The notes below the pieces were generated by a model that saw only the letters and a program-made list of their open reading frames with translations, made no database searches and was not told the DNA's origin. The position numbers and the translations under genes were made by a program. Of a stretch of 64,000 nucleotides of DNA, positions 1-45,062 are shown in pieces; positions within the stretch are counted from its first letter, which is position 1, and each line of letters starts with the position of its first letter. Source of the stretch: an uncultured Planctomycetia bacterium (GTDB lineage: Bacteria; Omnitrophota; Gorgyraeia; Duberdicusellales; 4484-171); NCBI GenBank assembly GCA_964455875.1, contig CAYVYZ010000002.1, positions 655 through 64,654 of the forward strand. Reading direction: 5' to 3'.

Positions 1-917
1 AATTCTTTAGAGCAGTCCCACCCAATGTAATTTCTTCCTTTTTTATAAGCCACTTCCATACGACTATTATGTCCACAATTATGAACCACAACACCATTTG
101 CTATAAAATTATTAAATTCTTCTACTTCCATATTATAAACATCTATTTTTTCCGTTAATTTTTCTATTTTAATAAGTTTGTGGTTATAATTAAACTTATT
201 CCTTGAAATGTTTCCTACCGTGTTTTTATGAACACCAACAATTTTTCCAGATTGTTTATGTTTTTTTCTATAAAAAGCCATTAAAGAATCGTTTTCTTTT
301 AAATCCTTTGCTTCTTTCCAAGTTCCATCTAATAACATTACCTTATGATTTGGTGTAATCACCAATTCTTTTTCATTGTCTAAAGTTATTTTAATAACTT
401 TCGCATTTTTTCTTGTTTTCCTTATATTCCAAGCCTTTCTTAATTTAAGTTCTTTACCATCACAACAATATACGTATGTTTCTTTACCAACCAATGTTTT
501 TATAGGAACGTCTCCCTCAGGAATAGAAATCAGCGTATCTCCGCTAACACAAAAAGGGTCAAAAAACACTTCTCCTCTCTCAGTATAGAAATCTAGCAAC
601 TGTTCCAGTATATCTCTTGGGAACATACTAATAGCTCCTTTCCAACGAACATTCTGGTTTCTGGTGCTATAATCATAAATCTGTAGTGTTGGATTCCTGT
701 GTTCTTGAGATACTTTGTGCTGGCTTCTATCTGTTAAATCAAGTTTCTCACTGTGTTTAACAGGCCACACGCTATCAGGTATTCTACCAAATATGTTCAG
801 CAACCTTATCTTCCCAGCATAAGCGTCTGATTTACCTTTAAGTATCTTCTTCTTTTGCTCAGGGTTTACCTGGATTGGCTTTAAAAAATGTTTCCAGTCT
901 TTCAAGCATTTCACCAC
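1..917 (-). CDS. DNA methyltransferase (N6A/N4C-type), 5'-partial gene running off the window, interrupted by a mini-intein in motif I
   Basis: The minus-strand frame reads ...WKGAISMFPRDILEQLLDFYTERGEVFFDPF|[intein]|CGHNSRMEVAYKKGRNYIGWDCSKE. The DPF-xGxxx / ...A..GR.yIG.. pattern matches the SAM-binding motif I region of amino-methyltransferases. There is no in-frame ATG, so the start is probably GTG/TTG near 905-917 overlapping the 3' end of the upstream cupin gene. Neither the C-terminus nor the DPPY motif is inside the window. Confidence 0.45.
   Translation of the reverse strand, partial: MVKCLKDWKHFLKPIQVNPEQKKKILKGKSDAYAGKIRLLNIFGRIPDSVWPVKHSEKLDLTDRSQHKVSQEHRNPTLQIYDYSTRNQNVRWKGAISMFPRDILEQLLDFYTERGEVFFDPFCVSGDTLISIPEGDVPIKTLVGKETYVYCCDGKELKLRKAWNIRKTRKNAKVIKITLDNEKELVITPNHKVMLLDGTWKEAKDLKENDSLMAFYRKKHKQSGKIVGVHKNTVGNISRNKFNYNHKLIKIEKLTEKIDVYNMEVEEFNNFIANGVVVHNCGHNSRMEVAYKKGRNYIGWDCSKE
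78..551 (-). mobile_element. mini-intein of 158 aa with no homing-endonuclease domain, inserted between DPF and CGHNS of the methyltransferase
   Basis: Block A is CVSGDTLISIPEG. Block B is ELVITPNHKVMLLDGTWKEAKDLKENDSL (the T-x-x-H element). Blocks F/G are VYNMEVEEFNNFIANGVVVHN followed by a +1 Cys. All of this is continuous in one reading frame. Confidence 0.8.
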
Positions 918-1242
918 TTTTAATTATTCTATATGAATCATCGTCTTCGTGATGCGTTGAGAACTCTATGATTTCTGCGTCTGTCACACCACCAAACGAA
1001 TGAACAAGGCCGGGAGGTATATGAATTATTGCTCCTTCATCTAATACTTCATATTTTATTTCTCCATCCTGGACTGTCATCATACCAACCTTACCCTTAT
1101 TAACATAAAACGTTTCGTCTTTCTTTAAATGAAAATGAAGACTGCACATCATTCCTTTCTTAACCACGAGTTTCTTACCACAATACTGTTTGTTAACAAT
1201 CCATTCTTCATATCCCCACGTCTTATCAACCTTTTTTACCAT
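859..1242 (-). CDS. cupin-domain protein resembling the C-terminal domain of mannose-6-phosphate isomerase / GMP
   Basis: WGYEEW...CSLHFHLKKDETFYVNKG...IHIPPGLVHSF...IIEFSTHHEDDDSYRI fits the type-II PMI cupin signature. Confidence 0.6.
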   Translation of the reverse strand: MVKKVDKTWGYEEWIVNKQYCGKKLVVKKGMMCSLHFHLKKDETFYVNKGKVGMMTVQDGEIKYEVLDEGAIIHIPPGLVHSFGGVTDAEIIEFSTHHEDDDSYRIIKSGEMLERLETFFKANPGKP

Positions 1243-1315: not shown

Positions 1316-3298
1316 TCATTGAAACGGTATTCTCACCTCACATTCTGAACCATCACAATACTTATCAACTAATTCATGGGTGTCTCCTTTCAACCTTACT
1401 TTCTTAATCTTATTAATCTCGTTTTCATATTGTTCCTTCGTTAATGGTATGTAAGGTGCTTGTTTATACCCATGTTCTTTACGTGGTAAAAAACTAACAC
1501 CTTTCAACCTTACTTCGTATAATTCTAATATGTTTTTAATATCCTTCGCTTCTTCTGGTGAAAAATAAGCGGTAACGCTTACTTGGTTGTCTGCCCAATA
1601 AGTCTGAAGTTGTGCAACATTTTCTAGTTGTTCCCAAACACTTACTTGGTCAACACTCCTATCGAAAAACTCTTCTTTAACTGGGAAAGACACCACCATC
1701 GTGTTCTCACTATACTTATCTTTCTCAACTTTATAACCTGCTTCTTTAAGTTGTTTAAGCATAGGACTACCAGACTGAAACCTTATGTTTCTAATATAAT
1801 ACTCTGCCACAGGATAATGAACTCCGGGCGTCACACCAGCTAACAAACTAACAGTTCCGCTTGGTTTAACACTGGTTGTTTTAATTGAGTGTGGTATTCC
1901 AAGCCATTCAGAATATACTCTGTCCCAATACTGAATTTTTTCATATCCTTCTTCACAAGCCTGGAAAAACTTTCTTCTACCAAACTTCTTAAATGCTTGT
2001 GTGATACCACTAATACTACATCCAATACGCCTATTACGATTCATAACCCTATTAGTTAGTGGTTGATGGGTGGGAATAAGGGTTACTGTTTTAGCATACA
2101 TATAAGCGTATTTAAGCGTCTCAATCCATTCTTCCAAAGTCTCGTGTTTTGTAGGATATGTCTCTACTAAACAACATAATTCATATGGTTCTAGTGTTTG
2201 TTCCAAACAGGGATTCCCACCACCAGCACGATAATCTTTGTTATCTGGACGACAATTAATACGCGAATATTTTCTAGCGTTCTCAAGCCACTCATAGCCA
2301 GGTTCTCCATTCTTCGCTGTTCTATTAGCAACATCTGAATAATCCATTCCTATCTCTGCAAAAACACTATTATTACTCGCCCACCTGTGATTATAAATCT
2401 CTTCTTTATGTTTTTCTGGATTTTTTAAATCTAAAAAGGTTGTGTCGTTTGGGTCACCAAACATTATCTCCGCTGAGCGTCTAACGTTTCCAGACACAAC
2501 ACACTTTCCAACCAAGTTAAATATGTCTACAATATCTGCGCTGGTTATCTTTTGGCCTACTCTTCCATAAAGCAACTTTACTATGGATTCATACATTTCT
2601 TTAAGTGGTTCTGGGCCGCTGGCAGTCCCACCAAAACCATTTATGGGACTACCAAGTGGTCTAATACTGCTATAATCAACTTCTGAGGGTAATGCGTTCT
2701 TACCAACAAAAGCATTTAATACTGTTCTTAGTAAACCCACCCAACCTTCTCTCGTATCTGGAACTTTAAAAACATAGGTTTCGTCCACCTTTGGTTGCTG
2801 AATCGTGATTTTACCTGCTCCTTTGGTATCACCACCAACACCAACACCAAGCATGCTCATATCCATTAAAAAACAAAAAGGTTCTGCGAAGTCTGTGGAA
2901 ATGTTTTCTGTGGAAACAAACGCACAATTATTAAGGGCCGCGCCTCCGCGTTCATACACATAGTCTGTACCCATCATCCACAAACCACGACCAGGCGGAG
3001 TGAACTTAAACTCCCACATCAACTCAAACATTCTCTGAGCAGAGTTATTGGCCTTCTTCTGACTCCAAGGCAGCTTATTTTTATAACAATGTCTCTTCTG
3101 AATAGTGAAAACTCCTTCTACTACTCTCCGTAAAGTCTGCCAATACTCTTCTGTCTTACCATTAGGTAAGGGCCTTGCGTAAGTCCTTTTAAAAACCACA
3201 TATCCAAGAGGACCCCATTTAGGTTGCTTCCCTTTAAACTTATTAACAAAATCATTGTTTAACGTAAAAAATATTTTCTTGTCATCCATGTTAACCAA
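1316..3298 (-). CDS. nrdJ: ribonucleotide reductase, class II (adenosylcobalamin-dependent, NrdJ-like)
   Basis: The N-terminus reads FKRTYARPL...EEYWQTLRRVVEG. Other matches are GRGLWMMG, NNCAF and the finger-loop NPCLEQT. The C-terminus has a Cys pair (CDGSEC). At 660 aa the protein carries no intein. Confidence 0.8.
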   Translation of the reverse strand: MVNMDDKKIFFTLNNDFVNKFKGKQPKWGPLGYVVFKRTYARPLPNGKTEEYWQTLRRVVEGVFTIQKRHCYKNKLPWSQKKANNSAQRMFELMWEFKFTPPGRGLWMMGTDYVYERGGAALNNCAFVSTENISTDFAEPFCFLMDMSMLGVGVGGDTKGAGKITIQQPKVDETYVFKVPDTREGWVGLLRTVLNAFVGKNALPSEVDYSSIRPLGSPINGFGGTASGPEPLKEMYESIVKLLYGRVGQKITSADIVDIFNLVGKCVVSGNVRRSAEIMFGDPNDTTFLDLKNPEKHKEEIYNHRWASNNSVFAEIGMDYSDVANRTAKNGEPGYEWLENARKYSRINCRPDNKDYRAGGGNPCLEQTLEPYELCCLVETYPTKHETLEEWIETLKYAYMYAKTVTLIPTHQPLTNRVMNRNRRIGCSISGITQAFKKFGRRKFFQACEEGYEKIQYWDRVYSEWLGIPHSIKTTSVKPSGTVSLLAGVTPGVHYPVAEYYIRNIRFQSGSPMLKQLKEAGYKVEKDKYSENTMVVSFPVKEEFFDRSVDQVSVWEQLENVAQLQTYWADNQVSVTAYFSPEEAKDIKNILELYEVRLKGVSFLPRKEHGYKQAPYIPLTKEQYENEINKIKKVRLKGDTHELVDKYCDGSECEVRIPFQ

Positions 3299-4546: not shown

Positions 4547-5269
4547 TTATTCTTTCATTACTATTGGCGCTATTATACAAATAAATTCCATGCTTCCTTC
4601 TTTCTCAATAGATATTAGTGGAACTCCTGCGCCAATCCTGAACTCAACCACCGTATCTAAAGCATTAAACAACGAAACAAACATAGGACCCACCGTTACT
4701 GAACCCGTTCCTTTACTTTTCAGGGGGTCAAAAGGAACTGTGTTAATAAAGAAATCTGATTCTCCTTTAACACCAACCTCGAAACTAAACACATCTTCTT
4801 CTTTCTTAATATCCACGTGGTTGATTTTGAGAACATCTAAATCACTAATGGTTCTCTGTATCTCCCTACTATCAAATATTATATTCGCACTCGTTTCAAT
4901 CTTTGGCATGTCACCACGATATATTATTTCTTTACAAACGGACTCTGACGCAAGAATAACATATATTTGCCTTCTATCATCAAATAATCTGATTATAAAG
5001 TCCTCTACTTTCTCTATTTCTATGATGTCGTTAAAGCTTTTCAAATACTTTATGAAAGAAGGCGTGTTCTTCACAAATATCTCGCCAATAGGTTCATACT
5101 CTACAAAAGCATCTTTTCCAAGGCTAGTCATAGTCATAGCTACGTTTCCTGGGTCTCTCACAGCAGATTTTAAACCTTCATCAGTAAAATTCAGGTTTAT
5201 AATCATTAATGCGCCATTCAAACTAGCTTTTCTCACAAAATCTTTCAATATGTTTGCTTTAACTTTCAT
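4547..5269 (-). CDS. sliding clamp, PCNA-like
   Basis: About 240 aa, immediately upstream of the clamp loader. The N-terminus MKVKANILKDFVRKASLNG...FVEYEPIGEIFVKN...IKYLKSF is PCNA-like. The start was trimmed to the second Met so that it abuts the upstream gene. Confidence 0.55.
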   Translation of the reverse strand: MKVKANILKDFVRKASLNGALMIINLNFTDEGLKSAVRDPGNVAMTMTSLGKDAFVEYEPIGEIFVKNTPSFIKYLKSFNDIIEIEKVEDFIIRLFDDRRQIYVILASESVCKEIIYRGDMPKIETSANIIFDSREIQRTISDLDVLKINHVDIKKEEDVFSFEVGVKGESDFFINTVPFDPLKSKGTGSVTVGPMFVSLFNALDTVVEFRIGAGVPLISIEKEGSMEFICIIAPIVMKE

Positions 5270-5273
5270 TTTA

Positions 5274-5714
5274 TCATAACTCCTTGGTTTTTTCAACTGC
5301 ACCTTTCATAATCTCAGAACTGCTTCTCACCTTCTTACCACCGGTTCCCCACACCATCTTAATACCCAACTCATTACATAAATTTATTTCTGGAACATCT
5401 TTCAATGTTCGTCTCTTATCTCCTCCAAGACAAAACACGTCTGGGTGGAAAACCTCTAGCTCTGTGCAAACAGACATATCTTTTGGGTTTTCATCGTGAA
5501 AACTAATTTTTACATCGTCAACATAACGCAACGCTTTCAAAATTTCTTTTCTGTCATTCTCTGACATAAAAACAAACCCCTTCTTCTTCTTAAGCCAGTT
5601 ATCATTATTTAATATGACTAGTAACGTGTCTCCATAATCTCTGGCTTCTTTTAAAAAATTGATATGTCCGACGTGCAAGGGGTCAAAACCTCCTGATACG
5701 GCTACTGTAACCAC
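5274..5714 (-). CDS. cytidylyl/adenylyltransferase-like nucleotidyltransferase (HldE domain II / TagD family)
   Basis: VAVSGGFDPLHVGHINFLKEA (an HxGH motif) followed by DTLLVILNND. Confidence 0.7.
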   Translation of the reverse strand: MVTVAVSGGFDPLHVGHINFLKEARDYGDTLLVILNNDNWLKKKKGFVFMSENDRKEILKALRYVDDVKISFHDENPKDMSVCTELEVFHPDVFCLGGDKRRTLKDVPEINLCNELGIKMVWGTGGKKVRSSSEIMKGAVEKTKEL

Positions 5715-19127: not shown

Positions 19128-19920
19128 TACCACCTCCAAAAATAGAGCCTTCCACAACAGGTTCTTTTTCTAAATCGTATGATGTTTTCCTAATTTTAAC
19201 ATTTATAATATCATTAGCAGGAGCTTCTGTATTGCCTATATAAGTCTTAACATAATCTTTTCCTTTAATATAATTAACTATATTACTGACTATTTTCCCA
19301 GCGAGTTCATTATTTACTGGGGCACAAGCTTTCTCTCCACAGGCTAATTCAGTTACCTTTCCGTGTGTAAGTGATTTCTCATATTCTTCAACTTCCTTTT
19401 TTTCTCGGCAATCAATAAGATAGTGTCGCATATTGAACATTCCAATCCTACCATCAACCCAGATAATGGGATAATCTTTTAACTTATCAAACAACATTTT
19501 CCTTGCTTCAAAGGAATCAAAGAAACAACAATATATCGTGTCCGGTAAAGGAATGACTTCTGTTTCTTCATTTATTTCCTCGTTAATAGTTATAATGTTT
19601 GTTAATCCTGCTTCATTTTTTAAAATCTCAGCCATCGCCTCAACTTTAGGCATACCAATTTGTTGAAAATTGTATGCCTGTGGCGAAATGTTCTCACTAC
19701 TGACTTTATCCCTATCTATTAATTCAATATTTTTGAACCCTGTCTTTGCTAATATCCTTGCGACGTGGGAACCAACACTTCCAACACCGAAAACTTTAAT
19801 AGTGTATTGATTAATCTTATCAGGTATTAGTTTTGCCTGCCTGCTTAAATCAAGCTCATTTACCTCTTCTTCTTTTTCTTCTTCTTGCTTTTCTCCTTCT
19901 TTTTCGTTTTTTTCCTCCAT
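19108..19920 (-). CDS. E1-like adenylyltransferase (ThiF/MoeB/UbaA family)
   Basis: IKVFGVGSVGSHVARILAKTGFKNIELIDRDKVSSENISPQ is a Rossmann fold with the DxDxV..SNL.RQ-like element. A Cys pair, ACGEKAC, lies downstream. The poly-Glu N-terminus overlaps the upstream gene. Confidence 0.65.
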   Translation of the reverse strand: MEEKNEKEGEKQEEEKEEEVNELDLSRQAKLIPDKINQYTIKVFGVGSVGSHVARILAKTGFKNIELIDRDKVSSENISPQAYNFQQIGMPKVEAMAEILKNEAGLTNIITINEEINEETEVIPLPDTIYCCFFDSFEARKMLFDKLKDYPIIWVDGRIGMFNMRHYLIDCREKKEVEEYEKSLTHGKVTELACGEKACAPVNNELAGKIVSNIVNYIKGKDYVKTYIGNTEAPANDIINVKIRKTSYDLEKEPVVEGSIFGGGNDAVLL

Positions 19921-21458
19921 TTTTTCCCCTCCTTTTTAGTTTTACTCGTATCTGTCCTTGCTATAGATTTTGCGGAAAAATTATTTTTTTCTTCTGGTAA
20001 CCCATTATCATTAACTCCTGTTAAATCCATTAAGGTTTGTTCTTGGTATTCATCAATAATCCTATCCACTATTTTAGCAATATGAACTCCGAATACTTCA
20101 AGGCTATGCCAAGTTGGGTCAAGCATAAGACTTCCTAAAATGTGGTTTTCATTATCATAAACCGAAGCAACCTCACAATCTGGCGCCGCCTCGCTCCAAA
20201 CAACTTTTAAGTCCCTGTTAATTTCTAATTGATTAATAATGGTATCAACTAATTCGGGCTCATCATACACCACTATTTTATCCCCCTCCTTGTTTTGTTC
20301 AATAAATCCTCTTTTTGGTTGTTCCGTATTAACTTCCTGAATTAATTGTTGTAAGTTTTTATCACCGTAATCCCCGTTTTCTTCTTCTATTTTCTCTAAA
20401 TCACACCACTCCTTTAATAGGAGTTTATTATAATTAATGAATAATTGGAGGAGTTTCTTTCTAAATTTATTAAAACTTTTCGGCGCAGGCTGTAATTTAA
20501 ACACGGTTCTCGCACCATCCTTAAAAGTTAATTCTGTTGGGTTTGGCCTAACAACATCTCCAAGGAAATTATTAGGACGAATAGCGTTCTTTAATATTTG
20601 TTTGAAATCTTGCCCTGTTTTAACCACACAACCGCCGTGTTTAAACTCCATACTTACCTGCTCGTTCTCAGCAGGAGAGAATTCAAAACCGTAGCTGGTT
20701 TTTATAAGGTTATTATCTACATAGAGCCGTTGGTCTTTTCTTTCCTCTTCAACATTCCCAAAAAGTTTTTTAAGGGCCTCAACATCGCTTTCCAAAATCA
20801 CTTTCTCACTCCTATTATAATTATAGTTATAATTATAGTTATTGCCTCCGTGATAATAGGTGTGAGTATAAGGGAGAGCTTTACCGTAGTCAAACACCCC
20901 CCGAGAAACCGGTCTCTCAACAACACATTTTTTCTTTATTGCCTCACATATCCTTGCTAACTCTTTATCTTCTGGGGAACACTCATAAAATATGTTTATT
21001 CTTTCGTTTAGGATTGTAACTCTTATTGGGTTACGAATATCAATTCTTACCTCTTTCTTCATCTCTCCATTATCCCAAGCAGTTTGTAAGAAGATAAAGT
21101 AAGGACGCTTTGCGTCGGCATCCATAAAAGTATCAAAGGTTTCATCTTCATCGGTAGAAGAACAACTTGGGCTACCCCCTGGGTGACGGTGCCAATAAAA
21201 GTTTATTTTACCCAATTCTTTCGTTGGAACTTCCTGTATAATATTCTTCCACATCTCTCCTGTGAAATGAACCGTTGCTCCGGTAACATATTGTTTGGGA
21301 TAATAAAGCTTATCAACATAAAAATATTTATTTCCGTCAACGGTTCTAATTCTGACGGTGCCAACAGCCCCTATCTCTGTGTCTAAATGTTCGGTAAACC
21401 ACTTTATTTGCCTATGGACATTATAGGCTAACATTACATTTGCCTTAAACTCTGACAT
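19860..21458 (-). CDS. JAMM/MPN+ metalloprotease domain fused to a ~360-aa domain of unknown function
   Basis: TEIGAVGTV...YWHRHPGGSPSCSSTDED matches E...HxHx7Sx2D. An NYNYNYNYN linker follows, and the C-terminus is a poly-Lys tail. Confidence 0.65.
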   Translation of the reverse strand: MSEFKANVMLAYNVHRQIKWFTEHLDTEIGAVGTVRIRTVDGNKYFYVDKLYYPKQYVTGATVHFTGEMWKNIIQEVPTKELGKINFYWHRHPGGSPSCSSTDEDETFDTFMDADAKRPYFIFLQTAWDNGEMKKEVRIDIRNPIRVTILNERINIFYECSPEDKELARICEAIKKKCVVERPVSRGVFDYGKALPYTHTYYHGGNNYNYNYNYNRSEKVILESDVEALKKLFGNVEEERKDQRLYVDNNLIKTSYGFEFSPAENEQVSMEFKHGGCVVKTGQDFKQILKNAIRPNNFLGDVVRPNPTELTFKDGARTVFKLQPAPKSFNKFRKKLLQLFINYNKLLLKEWCDLEKIEEENGDYGDKNLQQLIQEVNTEQPKRGFIEQNKEGDKIVVYDEPELVDTIINQLEINRDLKVVWSEAAPDCEVASVYDNENHILGSLMLDPTWHSLEVFGVHIAKIVDRIIDEYQEQTLMDLTGVNDNGLPEEKNNFSAKSIARTDTSKTKKEGKKWRKKTKKKEKSKKKKKKKR

Positions 21459-21477
21459 TTTTTTCCCTCCGAGTGTT

Positions 21478-23049
21478 TTAAAACACTTTCATTCCTTTAA
21501 ATTTCTTAATATTAATGTTATAATCATCCGCTTTCATAAGCTTTCTTTGTTCGCCTGTTTTAATCCTATCTTTATCATTAATCATTATTCTGTTTCCTTT
21601 CTCATCCCAAATCGGATAACCGTGTTGTAACCTGTTATCATAAAAATCCCATATCTTAACATAAGCGCCTTCATTTCTATATGTTTTAATCCAAAACCAT
21701 AATAAGGTGGCTAAATCAACAAACTTATTAAAGGATAAACATTCATAAATCTTATTCCTCCCATCACCACTACCAAAGCAAGGAGTGCCACCATGGGAGT
21801 CAGCATGTGGGTGGGGATGTCCATCAATATCGGTTTCTCCCTTAACTTTGAAACCATCGGGGGTTATGACAATTTCTATCCAACCCAAGTAACAAATTCT
21901 CTTACCAAGCTTCTTCCCCATATCGCTCCTTTTGAAATTTGGTATTGTTATGGTAGCAGGCTTAAATTTAATACATATACCGTCGTATTGTAAATCAATT
22001 TCATCAACAAACGGTAATTTTTTCACCTTATTAACCTCATTAAATATGGTTTTGCCAGAGGTATTAATAGTATTGGATATAAATATTTTCTCCTGCTCTA
22101 AACGATTTAACCTATCAAATAACAGCCTAATATTATTTTCGTTACTTGAAATATCTCTTGTTATCCTTTTTTTATCCTGTTTTATTTCTTCTAACTTCTC
22201 CCTTGCTCTCTTTAAGAACCCAGAAATAAAAATCTTTTTTTGTAAGGTAGTAATATTGGTTTTGACAGGTTTAAGAGATTTTAAGACGGCAAACAAATCT
22301 TTTAATGGTTTTGATATTTCTGTTTGAAGGGGAAGAATTTTTCTTATTAAGAAAGGATTATAATATAGTCTTATCAGGTTTCTTTCTTTAAAATATCTTC
22401 CTATGAGAATATTGTTTCCTATCTTAATATCAATTATTTTTTCTCCTTCAAAAGGACTAATGAAGGGAGCTTCATAAACAACTTTAAATTCTTCTTTGTT
22501 AGGTATATCAGTTACATCCCCATATTTATTATACAACAAATCGTTCATCCTTGTATAGAATCCTGGTGGAACTTCCTTTTTAATTCTACCATCAACCCCG
22601 GTATCAAAGACAAGGGTAATCTTTTTATTAATAGTAGCATTTCTTTTAAGGTTAAAAATAGAAGTTACTACCTCAATACCAAGCTCCTTGAACTTTTTAT
22701 CTAAAAGCTTTAATATGAGGGGGTTTCCATCAAGTCCATTAAATTTCTCTTTATAATCAAACATATTTTTAAAGACGGTTTTAGAAACATCTTCGGGCCT
22801 CAGGCTCTTCATAGTTTTTACCTTTTTAATCAACCTATCAATTAATTTAATGGCTTCTCTTCCCTCATAATTAATTTCTTTATCATTCATCCTAATTTTT
22901 CCAAGTAATTCTTTGCCTTTTGTAAACTGAAAGGTTTCATTATCAAGCCATTTTTCCTTGCCTTTTTTTCCTAACTTATTCACCACAATCCTTAAAATAT
23001 TTTCTATTAAATAAGGGTTATCATCCTTAAATTTTTTCACTTTACTCAT
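21478..23049 (-). CDS. hypothetical large protein
   Basis: 523 aa. The only notable element is DGHPHPHADSHGGTPCFGSGDG. Confidence 0.45.
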   Translation of the reverse strand: MSKVKKFKDDNPYLIENILRIVVNKLGKKGKEKWLDNETFQFTKGKELLGKIRMNDKEINYEGREAIKLIDRLIKKVKTMKSLRPEDVSKTVFKNMFDYKEKFNGLDGNPLILKLLDKKFKELGIEVVTSIFNLKRNATINKKITLVFDTGVDGRIKKEVPPGFYTRMNDLLYNKYGDVTDIPNKEEFKVVYEAPFISPFEGEKIIDIKIGNNILIGRYFKERNLIRLYYNPFLIRKILPLQTEISKPLKDLFAVLKSLKPVKTNITTLQKKIFISGFLKRAREKLEEIKQDKKRITRDISSNENNIRLLFDRLNRLEQEKIFISNTINTSGKTIFNEVNKVKKLPFVDEIDLQYDGICIKFKPATITIPNFKRSDMGKKLGKRICYLGWIEIVITPDGFKVKGETDIDGHPHPHADSHGGTPCFGSGDGRNKIYECLSFNKFVDLATLLWFWIKTYRNEGAYVKIWDFYDNRLQHGYPIWDEKGNRIMINDKDRIKTGEQRKLMKADDYNINIKKFKGMKVF

Positions 23050-36544: not shown

Positions 36545-37168
36545 TTAAATGATTTTATCAGCTAAACCAAGTTTAACTGCTTCTTCGGCGCTCATATAAT
36601 AATCGTATTTCATTAACTCCCTAAGCTTTTTTCTAGTGAACTTAGGATGCTTTTTACGTATCTGAGCTAGATAAATGTTTTCCATGAGCTCGTTTATACG
36701 ATTAGTTTCTTCTGCGGCCCTAACAAAATCTTTAGTATGAACCTGGTCAGTAGCTTCTGTTCCGTAATGAATCATAACCCTGCAATTCTTAGATAAAACT
36801 CTCTCTTTACAAGCCTGTAAGATTATGCTTCCCATACTCCTACAACGACTATAAGCAATCATTTTAACAGGGCTCTTAAGAGTTCTGATGAACTCATAAA
36901 TAGCCATACCTGCGTCCCATTCACCACCATGACTATTCCAAATAAGAGTAATCGTCTTATGGTTTATTTGGTCTAACAAGTATAATCCTTTAATAAGCTG
37001 TTCTGCACTCCAATCATTCACTTCCATGCTTTCACCAGTACCAAGACCTAAATTAATACTGCTGTTAGCACCATAATAAATCGTTCTGGTCTTATAATCG
37101 ATGTTATATTCAAAAAAATACGCGATGTCCGTTTCAACCAATTTTCTTTTTACCATTTTAACACTCAC
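36545..37168 (-). CDS. ClpP-like serine protease (S14 family)
   Basis: ITLIWNSHGGEWDAGMAIYEFI...SRCRSMGSIILQAC...VMIHYG...MSAEEAVKLGLADKII. Confidence 0.65.
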   Translation of the reverse strand: MSVKMVKRKLVETDIAYFFEYNIDYKTRTIYYGANSSINLGLGTGESMEVNDWSAEQLIKGLYLLDQINHKTITLIWNSHGGEWDAGMAIYEFIRTLKSPVKMIAYSRCRSMGSIILQACKERVLSKNCRVMIHYGTEATDQVHTKDFVRAAEETNRINELMENIYLAQIRKKHPKFTRKKLRELMKYDYYMSAEEAVKLGLADKII

Positions 37169-38820
37169 CTTATTAATCCCATCTGAATCTTCCTAACCAA
37201 ATCAGATTCGTGTTTACTTTCACCAAATCCTTTATAAGGGTCAAAAACACCTCTACCGCCTCCCTCCGTAATAGCGAAAGGAACACTAGCGTTTTGGGTG
37301 GCTCTGTTAGCAAGAGCTAAAGCCATAACACAATCATCGTAAGCACCAACGCTTTCATACTTGTAATTACCTGCGGGAGTTTTCAACTCACAAAACTTAC
37401 CAAGTTCTTCCTCAATTACTCGCATCACATTAATACTTGTTTCGTCTCCTTGGGGAAAAATAATTTGTTCGTGCTCAAAACTAATAATAAGAAACTTGAT
37501 AAGATGTTCTTTTTTCTGACCCTTACCACCAGTAACAAAACTATCAATGTTAAGATTGTGTTTATCAACTAGTTCATCAATTAAGTCTTGACCAAAATTG
37601 TTTTGTTCAACCAAGATGTAAGGATGATTAAATCTTCTGCTAATCTCAGCGATTTTTTTTGCTTGTTCACTGATTTTTAAGCCTTTCTCGCGCCAAACAT
37701 GAACTATTTGTTTTTCGTTAGTAATAGTATTAAACGCCATGATTATCATAACAGAATAATCTGCGCTGGCACTACCACTACGAGCAACGTCAACACCACC
37801 AACAAACACCCAGTTTTTATCTCTCTTATCACTTTTTGGAAGCAAACAAATGTCTTTTCCCTTGCTCTTAGCAGGTTTTATAAGCCAGTCTGGGAAAAGA
37901 CTAGCGTCTCTACTAAAGAATTCTAATTGATACTCCCTAGAAAACTTAAGAGGGCCCATAGATAAACGTTTCTGCATTAAATCATTCCAAGTGAACCTAT
38001 CAGGACACTGAATAATTCTTTTCTCATAATCAAGAATAGCTGGGTATCTACGTATCACCCAGACACTTCCCTGTTTAACACGATTAGCTATAGTAGTAAA
38101 AATGTCTGTGTCTGTCTTAGGAGTACCAACAAGAATCATTTGTCCTTTACGATTTAAAAGCATTGGGTCTAATACCATATCAATATAATCTTCTATTTCT
38201 CTATCACTAAGCCTATTATCTGTTCTAAGAATATCATCGATGACTATTCTGTCAACATGCTGACCAAGAATCTCACTACCAATCCCTTTCACAAGGATAT
38301 AACCACCATTATAACCAATTGTTTCAACAGCCCATTTATTAGGATTCTTCTTACTGATTAACCACTCATTATTCTCGATAATAGACTTTAATTCTTCTAA
38401 TATACGGTTTGCTTGTTCTTGACTAGCACTAACAATTATAATCCTCCTATATTTAAATAAGAACATATCATAAATACTAAGAATTTCCGAGAAGAAAACA
38501 GATTTTCCATGTCCCCTAGCACAAAGAATAGCTAAATATCTGTTTTTCTTTACAAGTTTATCCCAAGAACGAAGAAGTTTGTTAAACCTAAAAGGTGCAG
38601 GAAAACCAATATCTGTTAGGGGGCCTATAATGAACTTACAGAAAAAATATAGACCTTTATCCTTATCATAACATAATTCTAATATTGACTTAAAAAGAAA
38701 AGCGTGTAATGTGTTCTTATCATACCTACTAAGTAAATTCTTGTAAGAGAGTTCTAGGTTTCCAGTTTTTTCAACTACCCAATCACAATAATCTTTGTAA
38801 ATATCCTCATACGTTCTCAT
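37165..38820 (-). CDS. terL: terminase large subunit
   Basis: Walker A ILCARGHGKSVFFS and Walker B RIVIDDIL. The nuclease domain has VGGVDVARSGSASADYSVMII and YDDCVMALALA. Confidence 0.85.
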   Translation of the reverse strand: MRTYEDIYKDYCDWVVEKTGNLELSYKNLLSRYDKNTLHAFLFKSILELCYDKDKGLYFFCKFIIGPLTDIGFPAPFRFNKLLRSWDKLVKKNRYLAILCARGHGKSVFFSEILSIYDMFLFKYRRIIIVSASQEQANRILEELKSIIENNEWLISKKNPNKWAVETIGYNGGYILVKGIGSEILGQHVDRIVIDDILRTDNRLSDREIEDYIDMVLDPMLLNRKGQMILVGTPKTDTDIFTTIANRVKQGSVWVIRRYPAILDYEKRIIQCPDRFTWNDLMQKRLSMGPLKFSREYQLEFFSRDASLFPDWLIKPAKSKGKDICLLPKSDKRDKNWVFVGGVDVARSGSASADYSVMIIMAFNTITNEKQIVHVWREKGLKISEQAKKIAEISRRFNHPYILVEQNNFGQDLIDELVDKHNLNIDSFVTGGKGQKKEHLIKFLIISFEHEQIIFPQGDETSINVMRVIEEELGKFCELKTPAGNYKYESVGAYDDCVMALALANRATQNASVPFAITEGGGRGVFDPYKGFGESKHESDLVRKIQMGLIR

Positions 38821-39029
38821 TGTTCTGTCTTTTTCTTTTTTGAAGTTTCCTTCTTTTTCTTTTCCTCTTCCTTTGTTTTTATATTAATAAATGGGTTGTC
38901 ATAATCTTCGATATTATCCAAACCAATTTTTTCAATAAGACATCCTAAACAATATGTGAATCTTTTACCTCCTCCCATTAATCTCATCACCCATGTATTA
39001 AAGTGTCCACATTTATTTTTTATTGCCAT
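38817..39029 (-). CDS. small zinc-ribbon protein upstream of terL
   Basis: CGHF...CLGC with a K/E-rich tail. It may be a terminase-associated protein. Confidence 0.3.
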   Translation of the reverse strand: MAIKNKCGHFNTWVMRLMGGGKRFTYCLGCLIEKIGLDNIEDYDNPFINIKTKEEEKKKKETSKKKKTEQ

Positions 39030-40095
39030 TTTTTATTACCTCTTTCATTTCCATTATTCTATGAATGAATGTGTGTTTGGTTAAAACCGTTCTCTGTCCA
39101 TTCCTACCAATTTTCTTACATAATTCTTCGTTTTTCAAAAGAAAGTCTATCATATCTATTAAACCATCTTCATCGTAATAAACTAATAGGTCTTCTTCTC
39201 CAGTAATTTTTTCTCCTTTCTTATTAATCTTAAACATATTTTCCATTCCTTTACAATAGGTGGTTAAATATAGACCTCCTGCGCACAAAACTCTATAGAG
39301 TCTTGCGCTGAAACCAAGCTCTATGTCTGGGTCTTGGTCTATACCAAGATTAATAATGGAAGCTTCTACAACCATACTATGAATAAGATTTATAGCTTGT
39401 TTGTTTGTATGAACTGTTTTTAATATTGGTGGTAGTAACTTCCATTCACACACAACAGGTCCCCAGATTTTCAGGTCAAACCCCTCTTCAGCCAGTCTTG
39501 TAAGTATTTTTACTCTATTAGAGTGTTGTTTTAAGAAACCAATACTACCAATAAACGTTACGTCAGAACCATACTTCTTCCTTTGATAAGCGTTTAAATA
39601 AACACCTTTATTCAGATTAGGATAACACCCCTCGTCTAAATACCTTACGTTTTCAAAACCAGCCTCTTTGAGTTTATCAGCCACTCCTTTTAAACTACAA
39701 AAAAAGTAATCATAAAATTTAATAGCTTCAAAAAACTCTGTTTGTTCCCAAATTGGTTTATCAACAAGATACTTATCAAAGAACCAATTAACTATTTTTG
39801 CTTTTGGAAATTTTTCTCTTAATTTTTTTAGTGTGTCCATATGAAGCTCTAATCCTTTAAAAACAATGATTAAATCATAATCTGTTTCAAAAACATCGAT
39901 TTCTTTTAAAATACGTGGTTGAGCATTAAATATTCCTTCTTTATTAACAATAACTCGGATATCTATACCATCAACTCTATAACCGCTTTCTTGAAAAGAT
40001 AGTGCTATATACCACGCAGTCTGCCTATCTTTGAAGCTACCAAGCAACAAAACATTCTCTTTTTCTTCTTTTTTCTTGTTCATGACCACCACCAA
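39013..40095 (-). CDS. glycosyltransferase, CgeB-like GT-B family
   Basis: SARLYRVLCAGGLYLTT...HTFIHRI. Confidence 0.5.
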   Translation of the reverse strand: MVVVMNKKKEEKENVLLLGSFKDRQTAWYIALSFQESGYRVDGIDIRVIVNKEGIFNAQPRILKEIDVFETDYDLIIVFKGLELHMDTLKKLREKFPKAKIVNWFFDKYLVDKPIWEQTEFFEAIKFYDYFFCSLKGVADKLKEAGFENVRYLDEGCYPNLNKGVYLNAYQRKKYGSDVTFIGSIGFLKQHSNRVKILTRLAEEGFDLKIWGPVVCEWKLLPPILKTVHTNKQAINLIHSMVVEASIINLGIDQDPDIELGFSARLYRVLCAGGLYLTTYCKGMENMFKINKKGEKITGEEDLLVYYDEDGLIDMIDFLLKNEELCKKIGRNGQRTVLTKHTFIHRIMEMKEVIKNGNKK

Positions 40096-41020
40096 TATCT
40101 TTTTTTAATTCTTCTGCTGTAACAGTTGCAGTTCCAAGCTTCCCAACAACGATGCCTGCGGCATGATTAGCAAGTATAGCACTTTCTTCAAGAGACAAAC
40201 CAGATACTAGTGCAAGAACTAATCCTGCTACAAAAGTGTCTCCGGCACCAGAAACATCATAAACTTTCTTTGCTTTAGTAGGAATATGTGTGTGTTTTTT
40301 TGTGTGTTTATCAAATATGGAAAGGCCTTCCGGTCCTCGTGTAACTATGACATTCGAATTTAATTTTCTTAATAGTTTCTTACCAATTTGTTTGATATTA
40401 TCTGCTCCACACATTTCTTTTGCTTCCTTCAAATTTGGTGTTACAACAAAAACTTTTTTAAACCAATTAGTATGTGCTGGTGTTGGGTCAACCACCACTT
40501 TCATCTGATTATTCTTCAACTCTTTCATAAGTCTTTGTGTTATCATGCCTTTGTTATAATCAGAAACTATTATCATATCAAAGTTGTTTTGCTTAGAGAA
40601 CTTTATAATCCCATTAATTAATTTTCCTGGTAAAGGATTACATACTTCCCAATCAATTCTTAATAATTGTTGTCCGTTAGCCATAGCTCTTGTTTTCTTA
40701 ATGGTAAGATAATCTTCTCTCTCTATCAGGTTTGGTATAATGTTGTGTGTTGCCAATAATTTTAGTAACATATCTTTTTCATTATCATTTCCTACTTGTC
40801 CTATAAGAGTGCACTTTCCTCCAAGGGAAGTGATGTTGCTAGCTAAATTTGCGGCGCCACCAGCACGATAATCTACTTTCTTAACATTTATAACCGGAAC
40901 AGGAGCTTCTGGGCTGATACGATTAACATCTCCAAAAAGATATTCGTCCACCATTAAATCTCCAATAACCAAAATATTGGCTTTATTGAACTTATTAATT
41001 GCTCCTATTAATTTTTTCAT
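40037..41020 (-). CDS. sugar kinase of the pfkB family, resembling D-beta-D-heptose 7-phosphate kinase (HldE/RfaE domain I)
   Basis: ILVIGDLMVDEYLFGDVNRISPEAPVPV and DVSGAGDTFVAGL. Confidence 0.7.
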   Translation of the reverse strand: MKKLIGAINKFNKANILVIGDLMVDEYLFGDVNRISPEAPVPVINVKKVDYRAGGAANLASNITSLGGKCTLIGQVGNDNEKDMLLKLLATHNIIPNLIEREDYLTIKKTRAMANGQQLLRIDWEVCNPLPGKLINGIIKFSKQNNFDMIIVSDYNKGMITQRLMKELKNNQMKVVVDPTPAHTNWFKKVFVVTPNLKEAKEMCGADNIKQIGKKLLRKLNSNVIVTRGPEGLSIFDKHTKKHTHIPTKAKKVYDVSGAGDTFVAGLVLALVSGLSLEESAILANHAAGIVVGKLGTATVTAEELKKDIGGGHEQEKRRKRECFVAW

Positions 41021-42096
41021 TTTCTCACTATAGACTCCATTATTTTAAGCATAGCTCTGGCAATATTGTCAAAACTACCGGTTTCTCTACCATGCACAAC
41101 ACCTTGTTTAAGTCTGTTTTTTATCACATCTCTCTTGAGAGACCTTACATAAGCTATTGTTTCTGCCAGACTAAACGGATTAGTGACATCACAGTAAAAA
41201 GGAAAATCACCATATAAATCATGAAGTATTTTAAAATCTCCACAAATAACGGGTTTTCCAACAAACATCCCTTCCAGGGGACTAAGACCAGCAATATATT
41301 CGGTGTTCTGTGGATATAAAAGCATCGCGCTGTTTTTAATAAGTTCGAACTTCTCTTTCTGGGTTATAAGGCTTTTGTGTTCAAATGGAATGTTGTTCTC
41401 TTCACACACTTTCTTTATAAGTTCTAACTCCCCCCTATCTCGTCCAATACAAAAATATTTTAAATCTGGTTTTAATAAAGCTAGGGCTTTGGCTACCATT
41501 AAACAATTCTTTTTTGGTGTGAGCCTGGAAATAGTAATAACGTAATCTCCTTCTATATCTAACCCAGCTCCTTCATACTCCGGAAACAAATCTGTTCCAG
41601 CAGGAATCACATGAGTATCAGGGAACCAGTGTTTAGTATACTTATAATATTCGTCCCTAGCTACATAAGTATTAAAAATTAGTGTGTCTGCTTGTTTTAA
41701 AACATCAAACCAAAAAGACCATTGTCGCATTCTCCACCTTTCTTCTTTCATAGCATCTGTTGGGACATCAAGTATCATTATTCCCCATGGTAATTTATAA
41801 ACTCTTGCTAGATAAGCTACTACCGGTGATATCGGTGTGTGTGAACCAAATATTAAATCAAACTTTTCTCTAGCAAACAAATCAAGAGTCTTACTATGCA
41901 TTTTCGCAGGCACAAAAAACTTCTCGTAATCTATGTTAATCCTTGTAAGATTTTCATGTGGCTCTATAGGATTATCTTTATCATATTCGTCTAGTTGTTG
42001 AACAACAGCGGTAACTTTATGACCCGCTCTACAAAAAGCGTTACAAAGCCCAATCACAAAATTCGCGCTTTCAGCACCAAAATATAATATGTTCAT
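41017..42096 (-). CDS. glycosyltransferase family 4-like (GT-B)
   Basis: GLSPLEGMFVGKPVICGD. Confidence 0.6.
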   Translation of the reverse strand: MNILYFGAESANFVIGLCNAFCRAGHKVTAVVQQLDEYDKDNPIEPHENLTRINIDYEKFFVPAKMHSKTLDLFAREKFDLIFGSHTPISPVVAYLARVYKLPWGIMILDVPTDAMKEERWRMRQWSFWFDVLKQADTLIFNTYVARDEYYKYTKHWFPDTHVIPAGTDLFPEYEGAGLDIEGDYVITISRLTPKKNCLMVAKALALLKPDLKYFCIGRDRGELELIKKVCEENNIPFEHKSLITQKEKFELIKNSAMLLYPQNTEYIAGLSPLEGMFVGKPVICGDFKILHDLYGDFPFYCDVTNPFSLAETIAYVRSLKRDVIKNRLKQGVVHGRETGSFDNIARAMLKIMESIVRK

Positions 42097-43970
42097 TCTA
42101 ATACCTCTTCAAACGATTTAACAATATAATCTAGGTCTTCCTGATTCAAGAATTGGTGGCAACCGATATAAAAAGTTTGTCTACCAATAAATTCTGCTAC
42201 TGGCAACTTATTTTCATATTCTTTTTTTAAATGAGCTAAGGATGGCATATCGAGTGGTAAACAACCATACATAGGCCTTGTTTCAATTCCTTTTTCTTCA
42301 AGAGCTTCCCTAAACTCCGCCCTGCTAATCACGTTCTTATCTTTAATCACTATTGGATAACCAAGGTAAGCAATATCCTTATCATATTTTGGTAATTGTA
42401 TAATACCCCTATCTTCATATTTTTTCAGTCGTTCATTAAGGTATTTTACATTATCGTTTCGTTTCTTAATAATATCGTTTATGGTTTTGAATTGTTCAAA
42501 AGCTAATCCTGCGGCGAACTCTGTAGACCTATAATTACCACTAATCATATCGTGATAATATCTTGGGTGTAAATCCCTTTCATCTCTAAACATTTTATCC
42601 TTAAAATATTGTTCGTCCTCTTTGAAATAACAGGACACCCTACCATTAGATTTAAGCTTGTCATAAATCCTGTATAAATCCGCATTATTAGTGTTGATTG
42701 TTCCCATCTCACCACATTGTATTGTGTGAGCTATGAAAAAAGAGCAAGCTGACCATAACCCCCAACTACCAAGCTTTTTGCCTTTATAAGTAGTCCCGTA
42801 ACCCTGACAATTATCCTCTATTACAGGAATACCGTGTTTATCAGCTATCTCTCTAATTTTATCAATTTCGCATGGTATTCCCATAATATGAACCGGCATA
42901 ACTGCTTTTATATCTGGGTGCTCTTTAAGAGTTTTTTCAAGAGCTTCCGGGGACATACCAAGAGTGTTTTGGTCTATATCTACAAACACTGGTTCGTTGC
43001 CTGTTAAATAAATGGCGTTAATAGTAGCCATATAAGTGAAGGGAGTAGTGGCTATTTTCCCTTTATTCTTAAAAAATTCGTTCATGGCTCTCAAACCAAC
43101 TATTAACGCTGATGTGCCAGAATTAGTAGTAGTACAATAATTTGTGCCGATATACTCTGCCCACAAAGCAGAGAACATCTCAGAGTATTTTCCTTCAGAT
43201 ATTCTTCCAGAATCAAGTATTTCGTTAATCCTATCCTTTTCTTCTTGAGTAATTTTTAAATCACCGGTTGGGATTCTATAAGACATTTTCTTCTTCCTCC
43301 ATAAATAAATTGTTTCTTTTTGAGTAGTATAATAATAAATTTTATCAAAGTTTTTTTCCATATAATCTTCGAATTCTTCTTTTACAAGTAAGTTCTTAGC
43401 TAAGTGTTGTGGTGTGTGCGCACCAACACTAAACATCATACCAGTTGTTAACATATATCCTCTTGGTTTCAATAACGATGATAAGTGTTTCATAGTTTCA
43501 AGTGGATTATCTAAATGCTCTAAAACATCTATGGTCATTATCACATCGTATTTTAACTTATTCATCATTTCTTCATCAATAAACGAAACCTGTTTTTTCA
43601 TATGTTTACAACAAAACTTAGCGAAATCTTGTGTTATTCCCGGAACATCATAATAGTAAACATTATGATTATCTGATAAAGCTATGCTTATGGCTCCTAT
43701 CCCACCACCAAAGTCTAATATATCAAGCCCTTTACACAAACCATTTATCGGGTGAATAACATTGTTTACTCGTTTATCATCACTAAAACCTAACAAACCA
43801 AATATTGTCGTGTCTGACTTCTCATAATATTTTTCTTTACCAAGCTTCCACCAATCTTCAACAGCTTTTTTTGGGTTTCTCCTAATCTTTTCATTTACTT
43901 CAAAACTATCTAAGTTGAAGAACACTTCTGCAAGTTTTTTCATAGTTCGAATCATATTTTCTCCCTCCAA
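42093..43970 (-). CDS. bifunctional SAM-dependent methyltransferase (N-terminal) and DegT/ArnB-type PLP sugar aminotransferase (C-terminal)
   Basis: LDFGGGIGAISIAL...YYDV is the class I MTase motif. RISEGKYSEMFSALWAEYIGTNYCTTTNSGTSAL is the aminotransferase part. Confidence 0.65.
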   Translation of the reverse strand: MEGENMIRTMKKLAEVFFNLDSFEVNEKIRRNPKKAVEDWWKLGKEKYYEKSDTTIFGLLGFSDDKRVNNVIHPINGLCKGLDILDFGGGIGAISIALSDNHNVYYYDVPGITQDFAKFCCKHMKKQVSFIDEEMMNKLKYDVIMTIDVLEHLDNPLETMKHLSSLLKPRGYMLTTGMMFSVGAHTPQHLAKNLLVKEEFEDYMEKNFDKIYYYTTQKETIYLWRKKKMSYRIPTGDLKITQEEKDRINEILDSGRISEGKYSEMFSALWAEYIGTNYCTTTNSGTSALIVGLRAMNEFFKNKGKIATTPFTYMATINAIYLTGNEPVFVDIDQNTLGMSPEALEKTLKEHPDIKAVMPVHIMGIPCEIDKIREIADKHGIPVIEDNCQGYGTTYKGKKLGSWGLWSACSFFIAHTIQCGEMGTINTNNADLYRIYDKLKSNGRVSCYFKEDEQYFKDKMFRDERDLHPRYYHDMISGNYRSTEFAAGLAFEQFKTINDIIKKRNDNVKYLNERLKKYEDRGIIQLPKYDKDIAYLGYPIVIKDKNVISRAEFREALEEKGIETRPMYGCLPLDMPSLAHLKKEYENKLPVAEFIGRQTFYIGCHQFLNQEDLDYIVKSFEEVLE

Positions 43971-44920
43971 AAATCAAGCACCTCTTTTATTGTGTCGGCA
44001 ACAGAAATTTCTGGTTTCCAATCTGGGCACACCGATTTAAACTTAGTGGTGTCTGGCACTTGCATATTAACATCTTTTGGTCTTAATAGTTTTTCATCAA
44101 CAATTACTTCTATTTCTCCCTTTTTAGGACTAAGAGAAATCATGTGTGCTAATACATGACCAACCATCCAGGTTTCTTCACCCCCAATATTATAAGCTTC
44201 ACCCCACTTACCATTATCTGTGAGCATCCAATAAGCTCTGACACAGTCTTTCACATTCATAATGGTTCTATGACTCTTAAGATTGCCAACATAAATTTTT
44301 GGTTCTTGCAATCCTTTCTCTATTTTAGCTATTTGTTTAGCAAAAGCAGAAACGAAAAAGACATCACCACGCCTCTTACCAGTATGAGTGAATGCCCGTG
44401 TAATAACGGTTTTTAAGCCATAACATTTATGATACATTCTTCCGGCTAGGTCTTGCCCTACTTTACTAAGAGCATATGGTGATAATGGGTCAAAAGGCTC
44501 TGACTCAGATGTTGGTGTGTTAACTTGATGACCGTAAACCTCTGAAGACGAACAAATCAATATGACAGCGTCTTTATTATATTTATTCACCGCCTCAAGT
44601 AAATTGATTGTCCCGATAATATTTGCTTCTATAGTAGCACTAGGAGCACTGAAAGAAGCAGGAACATAAGACTGTGCGGCTAAATGAAATATTTTGTTAA
44701 ACGAATACTCTTTGAACAATCTCTCAACATTATGGGAGTCTGTTAAATCACACTCAACCCAAATTATCCTATCAGATTTGATATGTTCCACGTTTTTCAT
44801 ACTACTAGTATGTGCTCGTTGCATACAACAAACCATATAATCAGGATGGTTCTCAAGAATGTATTCTATTAAATGTGAACCAACAAAACCATTAGCTCCT
44901 GTTATTAAAACTTTTTTCAT
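43952..44920 (-). CDS. NAD-dependent sugar epimerase/dehydratase (extended SDR)
   Basis: MKKVLITGANGFVGSHL and the YxxxK region. The start was trimmed to MKKVL. Confidence 0.7.
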   Translation of the reverse strand: MKKVLITGANGFVGSHLIEYILENHPDYMVCCMQRAHTSSMKNVEHIKSDRIIWVECDLTDSHNVERLFKEYSFNKIFHLAAQSYVPASFSAPSATIEANIIGTINLLEAVNKYNKDAVILICSSSEVYGHQVNTPTSESEPFDPLSPYALSKVGQDLAGRMYHKCYGLKTVITRAFTHTGKRRGDVFFVSAFAKQIAKIEKGLQEPKIYVGNLKSHRTIMNVKDCVRAYWMLTDNGKWGEAYNIGGEETWMVGHVLAHMISLSPKKGEIEVIVDEKLLRPKDVNMQVPDTTKFKSVCPDWKPEISVADTIKEVLDFWREKI

Positions 44921-45062
44921 TATAAATCCACCCATTCTTTTTCTACAAATATTTGTGCTTTTGGGCATCTAGAACAACCTCTTGAGTTGCCCATCTTATC
45001 ATACACCCAGTGATGAAAATTAAAAAAACAATCATACCTATGTAGCTTCATAGTTTTTCTTT

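Follow-up and report, generated by a model that had tools for sequence, protein, structure and literature searches.

The DNA analysed here, called the window throughout, is the whole stretch of 64,000 nucleotides (nt) at positions 655 to 64,654 of contig CAYVYZ010000002.1 (GenBank assembly GCA_964455875.1). Its left end carries, on the minus strand, a methyltransferase gene interrupted by an intein. The explanation that we consider the best overall, and probably the right one, is a stand-alone viral methyltransferase of permuted domain order, whose cofactor loop is interrupted by a mini-intein competent for splicing and deprived of its nuclease. An earlier note on this DNA had read from the letters alone a mini-intein splitting motif I (DPF/CGHNS) of a methyltransferase; intein and PF01555 profiles, scoring above their cut-offs, bear this out, and the borders (551..78) and the length of 158 amino acids (aa) are right.

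The minus-strand frame is open from a stop at 926-924 to the window edge, over 307 codons. It reads AISMFPRDILEQLLDFYTERGEVFFDPF, then the insert from CVSGDT through ITPNH to DVYNMEVEEFNNFIANGVVVHN (158 aa, 551..78), then CGHNSRMEVAYKKGRNYIGWDCSKE, and runs on past the edge. The parts of the insert are the following:

78..551, minus strand: class-1 mini-intein of 158 aa, from CVSGDT to VVVHN and then Cys+1; profile matches and the intein-free allele P0001 fix both boundaries
551-525, minus strand: intein block A, CVSGDTLIS
359-345, minus strand: intein block B, ITPNH (TPNH at 356-345)
143-93, minus strand: intein block F, DVYNMEVEEFNNFIANG
92-78, minus strand: intein block G, VVVHN

All catalytic positions of class 1 are present: Cys1 (551-549), the Thr and His of block B, the terminal His-Asn (83-78) and Cys+1 (77-75). 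The insert exceeds the cut-offs of three intein profiles, as the earlier note had expected: PF14890 Intein_splicing from Pfam (82.8 bits against a cut-off of 35.8) and, from NCBIfam, TIGR01445 intein_Nterm (44.7 against 24.5) and TIGR01443 intein_Cterm (28.4 against 15.6). In phmmer, two structures of the Ssp DnaB mini-intein (6frg and 1mi8) align end to end with intein residues 2-157, and this alignment to solved mini-inteins argues for a HINT fold. Within the intein frame there is no match to HNH, LAGLIDADG or any other nuclease, and the linker counts about 35 aa. The insert is a genuine class-1 mini-intein. The earlier note was correct in finding all blocks and no endonuclease within 158 aa; its remark that this is compact for an intein does not stand, since mini-inteins are commonly of such a size (PMC6390638 describes one of 123 aa, from GyrB).

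The other two sense frames across the intein are closed by many stops. An endonuclease hidden in antisense was considered and rejected: the open reading frames (ORFs) at 376-588 and 203-358 inside the intein have no Pfam match. When the intein was compared by phmmer with all six-frame ORFs, no second intein appeared in the window. At 27.8%, the G+C content of the intein falls in the lowest 2.9% of 474-nt windows, the extein standing at 36%.

The host gene is cut by the window edge. An exact look-up of the neighbouring cupin protein gave four contigs from four samples that reach past it: L001, L002 and L004 show no mismatch to the window over the 1300 nt compared, and L003 shows two. A fifth contig, found later (L011), encodes an identical ORF; with the window counted as the sixth, the intein-bearing allele agrees in six independent assemblies. 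The complete gene (L001 8268-9701) has a 477-aa product as called from GTG914 and extends 173 codons past the window edge. There the protein continues with LVEGDSRKIDEPDNSVDFIFSSPPYWNLEWYGDEPEQLG, then NVNDFR, then HEHLLVFLKP, and motif IV is found as FIFSSPPYW, with SPPYW 69 residues after the splice junction. The parts of the extein that lie within the window are:

552..905, minus strand: N-extein, 118 aa from TTG905, with the N-terminal region, motif X, strand beta-1 and the first half of motif I
629-585, minus strand: motif X, SMFPRDILEQLLDFY
572-552, minus strand: first half of motif I, EVFFDPF
1..77, minus strand: start of the C-extein, Cys+1 and then motif II
77-54, minus strand: Cys+1 and second half of motif I, CGHNSRME
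32-15, minus strand: motif II, NYIGWD

Removing the intein in silico lifts the PF01555 (N6_N4_Mtase) score of the extein within the window from 28.3 to 44.2 bits, and the spliced full-length protein reaches 75.1 bits against a cut-off of 26.7. The completed extein is a methyltransferase, as the earlier note had supposed. That note had also stated that no DPPY motif lies upstream of the intein and had offered, as one way out, an enzyme with motif I first; the downstream position of SPPYW, beyond the window edge, confirms both points. The PF01555 match itself comes in two swapped pieces, residues 54-149 covering profile positions 116-217 and the C-terminal half covering positions 1-110. The beta-class enzyme TTHA0409 (2zie) matches in the same swapped way: query 170-275 pairs with chain 24-138, query 96-149 with chain 218-271. 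The beta-class order, with the catalytic half first (motifs IV-VIII, target recognition domain, X, I-III), is reversed here. Judged by these alignments, the enzyme is a circular permutant of the beta-class PF01555 amino-methyltransferases, with X and I-III first and IV-VIII after them.

We found 429 homologues, most of 300-325 aa, and the permuted order is a trait of the family. The order is not new, because the protein is colinear with the existing families phrog_498 ('DNA methyltransferase') and phrog_12517. An alignment of 85 homologues has D120, G124 and the SPP of motif IV (S192-P194) without exception, and almost without exception H125-M129 of GHNSRM together with Y195-W196 of SPPYW. Motif I reads DPF(C/A)GHNS where D/E-x-F-x-G-x-G would be usual: the first Gly is invariant, and the second is Asn throughout the family. 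An AlphaFold2 model of the intein-free allele (predicted local distance difference test (pLDDT) score 89.3, predicted template modelling score 0.86) puts the insertion point into the loop that links strand beta-1 (117-120) with the helix at 127-134. In this model the insertion point is the loop that would bind the cofactor S-adenosylmethionine (SAM): motif I, between beta-1 and helix A of the Rossmann fold.

Sequence family and gene context lead us to infer that the substrate is DNA. Its closest PDB entries by sequence are DNA methyltransferases (TTHA0409, the N4-cytosine enzymes 8s9n and 8s9m, CcrM, MboIIA and RsrI), and a Ser in SPPY is typical of N4-cytosine enzymes. The RNA-related profiles PF01170 (UPF0020; 15.4 bits, cut-off 22.3) and Trm14_Arch (15.6 bits, cut-off 280) stay under their cut-offs. 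No cognate restriction endonuclease adjoins the gene, its neighbours being the cupin gene, a class II ribonucleotide reductase and small ORFs with no Pfam match; among relatives these neighbours vary. The gene acts as an orphan viral methyltransferase, outside any restriction-modification system.

The start of the gene overlaps the cupin gene upstream:

859..1242, minus strand: cupin gene, 127 aa, with matches to Cupin_1, Cupin_2 and phrog_7851; not part of the methyltransferase
911..915, minus strand: Shine-Dalgarno-like GGTGA, 5 nt upstream of TTG905 and conserved in L005
903..905, minus strand: TTG, the most likely start, giving MKDWKHFLKP and aligned with the starts of homologues

Between the stop and the intein the frame has 124 codons, not the 122 without Met that had first been counted, and a single ATG at 626-624 (the Met in AISMFPRD). 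This ATG cannot be the start because it lies inside the conserved motif X, so the earlier statement that no usable ATG exists was sound. Its further point, that a non-ATG start lies within the 3' end of the cupin gene, is supported by three observations: a TAA in the intein-free allele, the GGTGA and the alignment of TTG905 with the ATG of homologues. In that allele (L005) the TAA stands directly before GTG-GTG, and for this reason only GTG917, GTG914 or TTG905 can serve as start; the two gene-caller alternatives are the GTG codons at 915-917 and 912-914. A Shine-Dalgarno-like tetramer lies 4-13 nt upstream in 27 of the 47 ATG genes of the window, against 11% at random positions, and among the three candidates only TTG905 has one, with none at GTG917 or GTG914. 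Homologues begin with MSDWKD, MDDWKD or MNEWKD where TTG905 (MKDWK) aligns, and the genes in L006 and L008 read AGGTG, 6 nt, then ATG opening MSDWKD. On these alignments translation most likely starts at TTG905, which would make the overlap with the cupin gene 47 nt.

The cupin gene is upstream in L001-L005 and missing in the syntenic relatives L006, L008 and L009; close homologues of the methyltransferase all stand alone, at 316-325 aa. The cupin gene matches phrog_7851 'cysteine dioxygenase' with E = 3e-32 and occurs with both intein-bearing and intein-free alleles.

The origin of the mini-intein can be traced in relatives that carry a longer intein at the same place. An exhaustive search of representatives with the intein returned 4973 relatives, where a word-indexed search had given one weak match and missed even the intein's own cluster. 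The best relatives other than itself (P0123, P0126, P0157, P0127 and P0130) belong to the same methyltransferase family and have the identical insertion site; a degenerate DNA scan added L012, L013 and L014, also with inteins at motif I. These motif I inteins measure 231-314 aa and are 53-69% identical over the 158 residues of the window intein. Four have HNH_3 just under its cut-off, two have NUMOD3 above its cut-off, and a helix-turn-helix (HTH) module is also carried. Aligned with them, the window intein shows the deletion of a module of 73-156 aa, and the seam is still legible:

192..263, minus strand: scar left by the loss of the homing endonuclease, where KHKQSG (263-246) now abuts KIVGVHKNTVGNISRNKF (245-192), the only helix that remains of the HTH module and once its last

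Against P0123, P0126, P0127, P0130, L013 and L014, the HNH, NUMOD3 and first HTH helices are missing at the scar. Everything between KHKQSG and KIVGVHKNTVGNI is gone, and both strings are found verbatim in full-length relatives. The P0123 intein (231 aa), with only the NUMOD3 part lost, looks like an intermediate. By this comparison the mini-intein is an in-frame deletion derivative of an HNH-type homing intein, with one HTH helix kept. Beyond these relatives, a scan of IMG/VR with the intein gave one distant match (37% identity), and the degenerate pattern GVHKNTVGNI had no match in IMG/VR or in GTDB genomes.

Two of the relatives hold further inteins. P0127 (1027 aa) has a LAGLIDADG intein right after SPPYW; P0130 (1373 aa) has inteins just before SPPY (CYT, then a Cys, up to a terminal GN before SPPYW) and before CFASQ, with boundaries placed by eye. 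Outside the methyltransferase family, several intein relatives (P0208, P0243) sit in proteins that look by eye like ribonucleotide reductases, and the mini-intein of P0208 is 53% identical to that of the window over the N-terminal half. The class II ribonucleotide reductase of the window (1316-3298, minus strand) has no intein.

Inteins appear to enter this methyltransferase family at no fewer than four sites: within motif I, shortly before SPPY, directly behind SPPYW and ahead of CFAxQ. At motif I, the forms of about 310, 231 and 158 aa and the empty site may represent a decay series of one HNH-NUMOD3-HTH lineage.

An intein-free allele from a different sample, P0001 on contig L005, is 97% identical over the full-length protein and reads DPF-A-GHNS, gap-free across the splice junction. 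The cupin and methyltransferase DNA of both alleles is about 97% identical (38 differences in 1344 nt). Within the 960-nt spliced gene there are 25 nucleotide differences, 15 of them within 60 nt on either side of the insertion point (binomial P = 2.7e-8), and the clustered ones comprise synonymous as well as non-synonymous changes. A tract of differences of about 100 nt is the pattern expected of flank co-conversion when the intein was gained, or of its loss by recombination with an empty allele. The spliced product, with Cys in place of the Ala, resembles natural variants of the family, because the intein-free relatives P0019 (DLTCGHNS) and P0020 (DPSCGHNS) have a Cys before GHNS of their own. 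Homology between L005 (from 1456) and L001 (from 9702) ends right after the methyltransferase stop, a mosaic breakpoint.

On the observed sequence anatomy, family membership, permutation, empty allele, deletion relationship and clustered differences, we propose the following course of events. The gene would stand alone within a module for replication and nucleotide metabolism in a tailed virus about 65 kb in size, and translation from TTG905 would give a precursor of 473 aa (477 aa from GTG914). In this precursor the intein between DPF and CGHNS would interrupt the SAM loop and keep the enzyme inactive until spliced. Splicing would proceed by an N-S acyl shift at Cys1, trans-thioesterification onto Cys+1, cyclisation of the C-terminal Asn and an S-N shift, by which DPF would be joined to CGHNSRME and the cofactor loop restored. 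The mature enzyme of about 315 aa would probably methylate the virus's own DNA, at N4 of cytosine or N6 of adenine. The intein itself would be no ancient minimal form: an in-frame deletion would have removed the nuclease from an HNH/NUMOD3/HTH lineage, and gene conversion at the gain or loss of the intein would have left the tract of allele differences.

We also advance, tentatively and as something short of probable, a joint reading of these data. The permuted family, in uncultivated viruses whose replication genes are of archaeal type and which are possibly associated with Asgard archaea, would be an undescribed hot spot of inteins with a decay series at motif I; the allele pair, at about 97-98% nucleotide identity, would be a natural record of recent homing or loss; and the mini-intein would possibly be mobilised in trans by a related nuclease at co-infection.

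Several points weigh against the proposed explanation. Block F is non-canonical at two places, each an Asn: in VYNMEV it takes a position often held by Asp in other inteins, and in FNNF one often held by His; being common to relatives that still bear the homing endonuclease, these residues are probably tolerated. In an AlphaFold2 model of the precursor the intein has a pLDDT below 50, over a part where the alignment has no depth. Motif I has G-H-N in place of the usual G-x-G. Foldseek searches with the model of the methyltransferase return class I methyltransferases of canonical order, archaeal Trm11 best at a TM score of about 0.45; such matches are expected, because the alignment is sequential and the query permuted. 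Adaptation of the extein to the intein, in place of a conversion tract, could partly explain the clustering of allele differences. The only taxonomic label comes from a 72%-identical methyltransferase homologue on a 3-kb contig of a metagenome-assembled genome named Promethearchaeota. Finally, splicing activity, the start codon, the DNA substrate with its target base and the direction of conversion are all matters that we infer.

Two alternatives concern the insert. It might be a dead remnant that can no longer splice, leaving an inactive precursor and a gene heading for loss. The missing homing endonuclease, which makes selfish maintenance impossible, would fit this, as would the non-canonical residues at F:4 and F:13 and an intein-free allele in circulation. 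Against it, Cys1, the block B Thr and His, the terminal His-Asn and Cys+1 are intact, and the six independent assemblies, taken from different samples, all have the ORF unbroken and differ by one amino acid at most. Relatives with a full endonuclease share the same block F residues, and the extein is conserved at every invariant position of the family; we consider a dead remnant distinctly unlikely. Far less credible still is a non-splicing domain retained in the mature enzyme, on the model of the ShiLan insertion of actinophage methylases. Phage methylases do have non-splicing insertions with hidden HNH genes (PMC11855218), but here, unlike in ShiLan, the insert passes three intein profile cut-offs with every splicing residue in place. 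Besides, 158 aa inside the cofactor loop would block SAM binding, and the antisense ORFs within the insert match nothing in Pfam.

The other two concern the host gene. That the extein acts on RNA, like Trm11 or Trm14, or on a small molecule, with (D/S)PPY chemistry as an amino-methyltransferase, is an unlikely reading that nonetheless draws on several observations: the top Foldseek matches to archaeal Trm11 and other canonical-order class I enzymes, the weak UPF0020 and Trm14 matches, the canonical motif order and the unusual GHNS in motif I. Against these stand 75 bits to PF01555 and a sub-cut-off 15 to UPF0020, best PDB sequence matches that are DNA methyltransferases, a string SPPYW..GDEPEQLG common to TTHA0409, PHROG matches to DNA methyltransferase families and a location in the viral replication module; sequential Foldseek is moreover biased against beta-class targets when the query is permuted. 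Hardly credible at all is the other way out offered by the earlier note, a fusion of cupin and methyltransferase by programmed frameshifting, or a frameshift in the assembly that merely simulates a non-ATG start. ORFs overlapping by 47-59 nt and the lack of an ATG before motif X could be read in this sense. We set it aside because the six assemblies concur and the relatives' genes stand alone without any cupin, the close homologues all measuring 316-325 aa; the diverged allele L005 is arranged alike, and the Shine-Dalgarno sequence and TTG align with those and the ATG of homologues. The preferred explanation remains that of an intact, stand-alone viral methyltransferase with a mini-intein in its cofactor loop.

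The window is a tailed virus whose replication genes are of archaeal type; the tailed-virus markers are:

37165-38820: large terminase (TerL), tailed-virus marker
49950-51431: portal, tailed-virus marker
53784-54779: major head protein (major capsid protein), tailed-virus marker

Its replication and metabolism genes include an RFC-like ATPase, RadA/Rad51 and the class II ribonucleotide reductase, and the relatives L006, L008 and L009 keep the synteny RFC-like ATPase, class II ribonucleotide reductase, methyltransferase. Window positions 1-25000 have no megablast match among GenBank phages, and ARAGORN finds zero tRNA genes over the window. As to the host, the homologue labelled Promethearchaeota gives a lead towards Asgard archaea, not evidence. 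Near-identical copies of the virus occur in the paired Joint Genome Institute (JGI) samples 3300021468 and 3300021471 (L003, L004) and in several European Nucleotide Archive assemblies. The pairing recalls the Guaymas Basin samples, likewise paired, of the published Asgard viruses 'Fenrir' and 'Nidhogg' (10.1101/2021.07.29.454249), again as a lead only; a possible identity with 'Fenrir' rests on the paired JGI samples and gene content.

Other parts of the window deserve mention. A divergent strand switch lies at 49845-49950: all genes to its left (replication, metabolism, terminase) are on the minus strand, and the portal, head and downstream genes to its right on the plus strand. Positions 39013-44968 (minus strand) look like a sugar-modification cluster, within which the ORF at 42093-43970 fuses a SAM methyltransferase domain and a DegT/DnrJ/EryC1 aminotransferase in one protein of 625 aa. 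In 58353-63345 (plus strand) and 19860-23049 (minus strand) lie four large ORFs (523-883 aa) that match nothing in Pfam or PHROG at E <= 0.001. The 251-aa ORF at 4547-5302 (minus strand) adjoins the RFC-like clamp-loader gene, where a sliding clamp would be expected; the label PCNA, given to it by this position, was withdrawn, as it has no Pfam match.

Altogether, a mini-intein in a viral methyltransferase is a clean example of a known phenomenon and no new kind of system; it is noteworthy in that the insertion site is new, that an apparent decay series is preserved and that the two alleles form a pair with a conversion-like tract. The current understanding of inteins and of methyltransferases is unchanged. 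The SAM-binding loop is added to the sites of inteins in PF01555 methylases, distinct from the two mycobacteriophage sites checked, and methylase inteins, known from actinophages, now occur also in tailed viruses whose replication genes are archaeal in type. The set of empty, mini-intein and HNH-bearing alleles is a compact natural system in which to study the homing cycle, and protein engineering could gain from it a small mini-intein of the Cys/Cys kind. For annotation, the gene should be taken as intact: it starts at TTG, its motif order is permuted and its product would be spliced; otherwise pipelines might report it as weak or truncated.

Among known systems the closest are the inteins in PF01555 DNA methylases of mycobacteriophages and other actinobacteriophages, DNMT-1 and DNMT-2 (Kelley et al. 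2016, PMC5050341; 10.1101/2025.01.02.630785). The window intein shares with them a PF01555 host, tailed viruses, a conserved functional motif as target and intein-free close relatives. In Brocalys gp61 an intein of 331 aa interrupts motif X (HV|CPLQF), some 25 aa upstream of DPFGGLGT, and in Bobi gp73 one of 327 aa sits at AWLYG|SGFPKS; unlike both, the one described here occupies motif I, comes from an HNH lineage and sits in a permuted enzyme among archaeal-type replication genes. Non-canonical intein endonucleases have been placed in host proteins other than methylases (10.1101/2025.01.02.630785).

In-frame HNH inteins are known (Dalgaard et al. 1997, as cited in 10.1101/2025.01.02.630785), and the citing paper describes them as rare. 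The parental lineage (P0126, P0127, P0130, L013, L014) is of this type, with HNH, NUMOD3 and HTH between the splicing halves, whereas the window copy lacks HNH, NUMOD3 and most of the HTH. In build it resembles mini-inteins, natural and engineered, such as those of Ssp and Npu DnaB, Pho RadA and Mtu RecA (1mi8, 6frg, 4o1r, 2lqm), class-1 HINT domains of about 140-170 aa without endonuclease, with which it shares Cys1, TxxH and HN followed by a nucleophile; it differs from them in its low similarity (E about 1e-6) and in the 18-aa HTH vestige in its linker. The ShiLan insertion (PMC11855218) has no splicing domains, and the window insert has them. For the extein, the best solved sequence relative is TTHA0409 (2zie, 2zif, 2zig), a putative beta-class modification methylase of Thermus thermophilus: the two have SPPYW..(G)xxPxQLG and motifs X and I in common, while their half-domains are swapped and motif I reads GHN here and GTG in TTHA0409.

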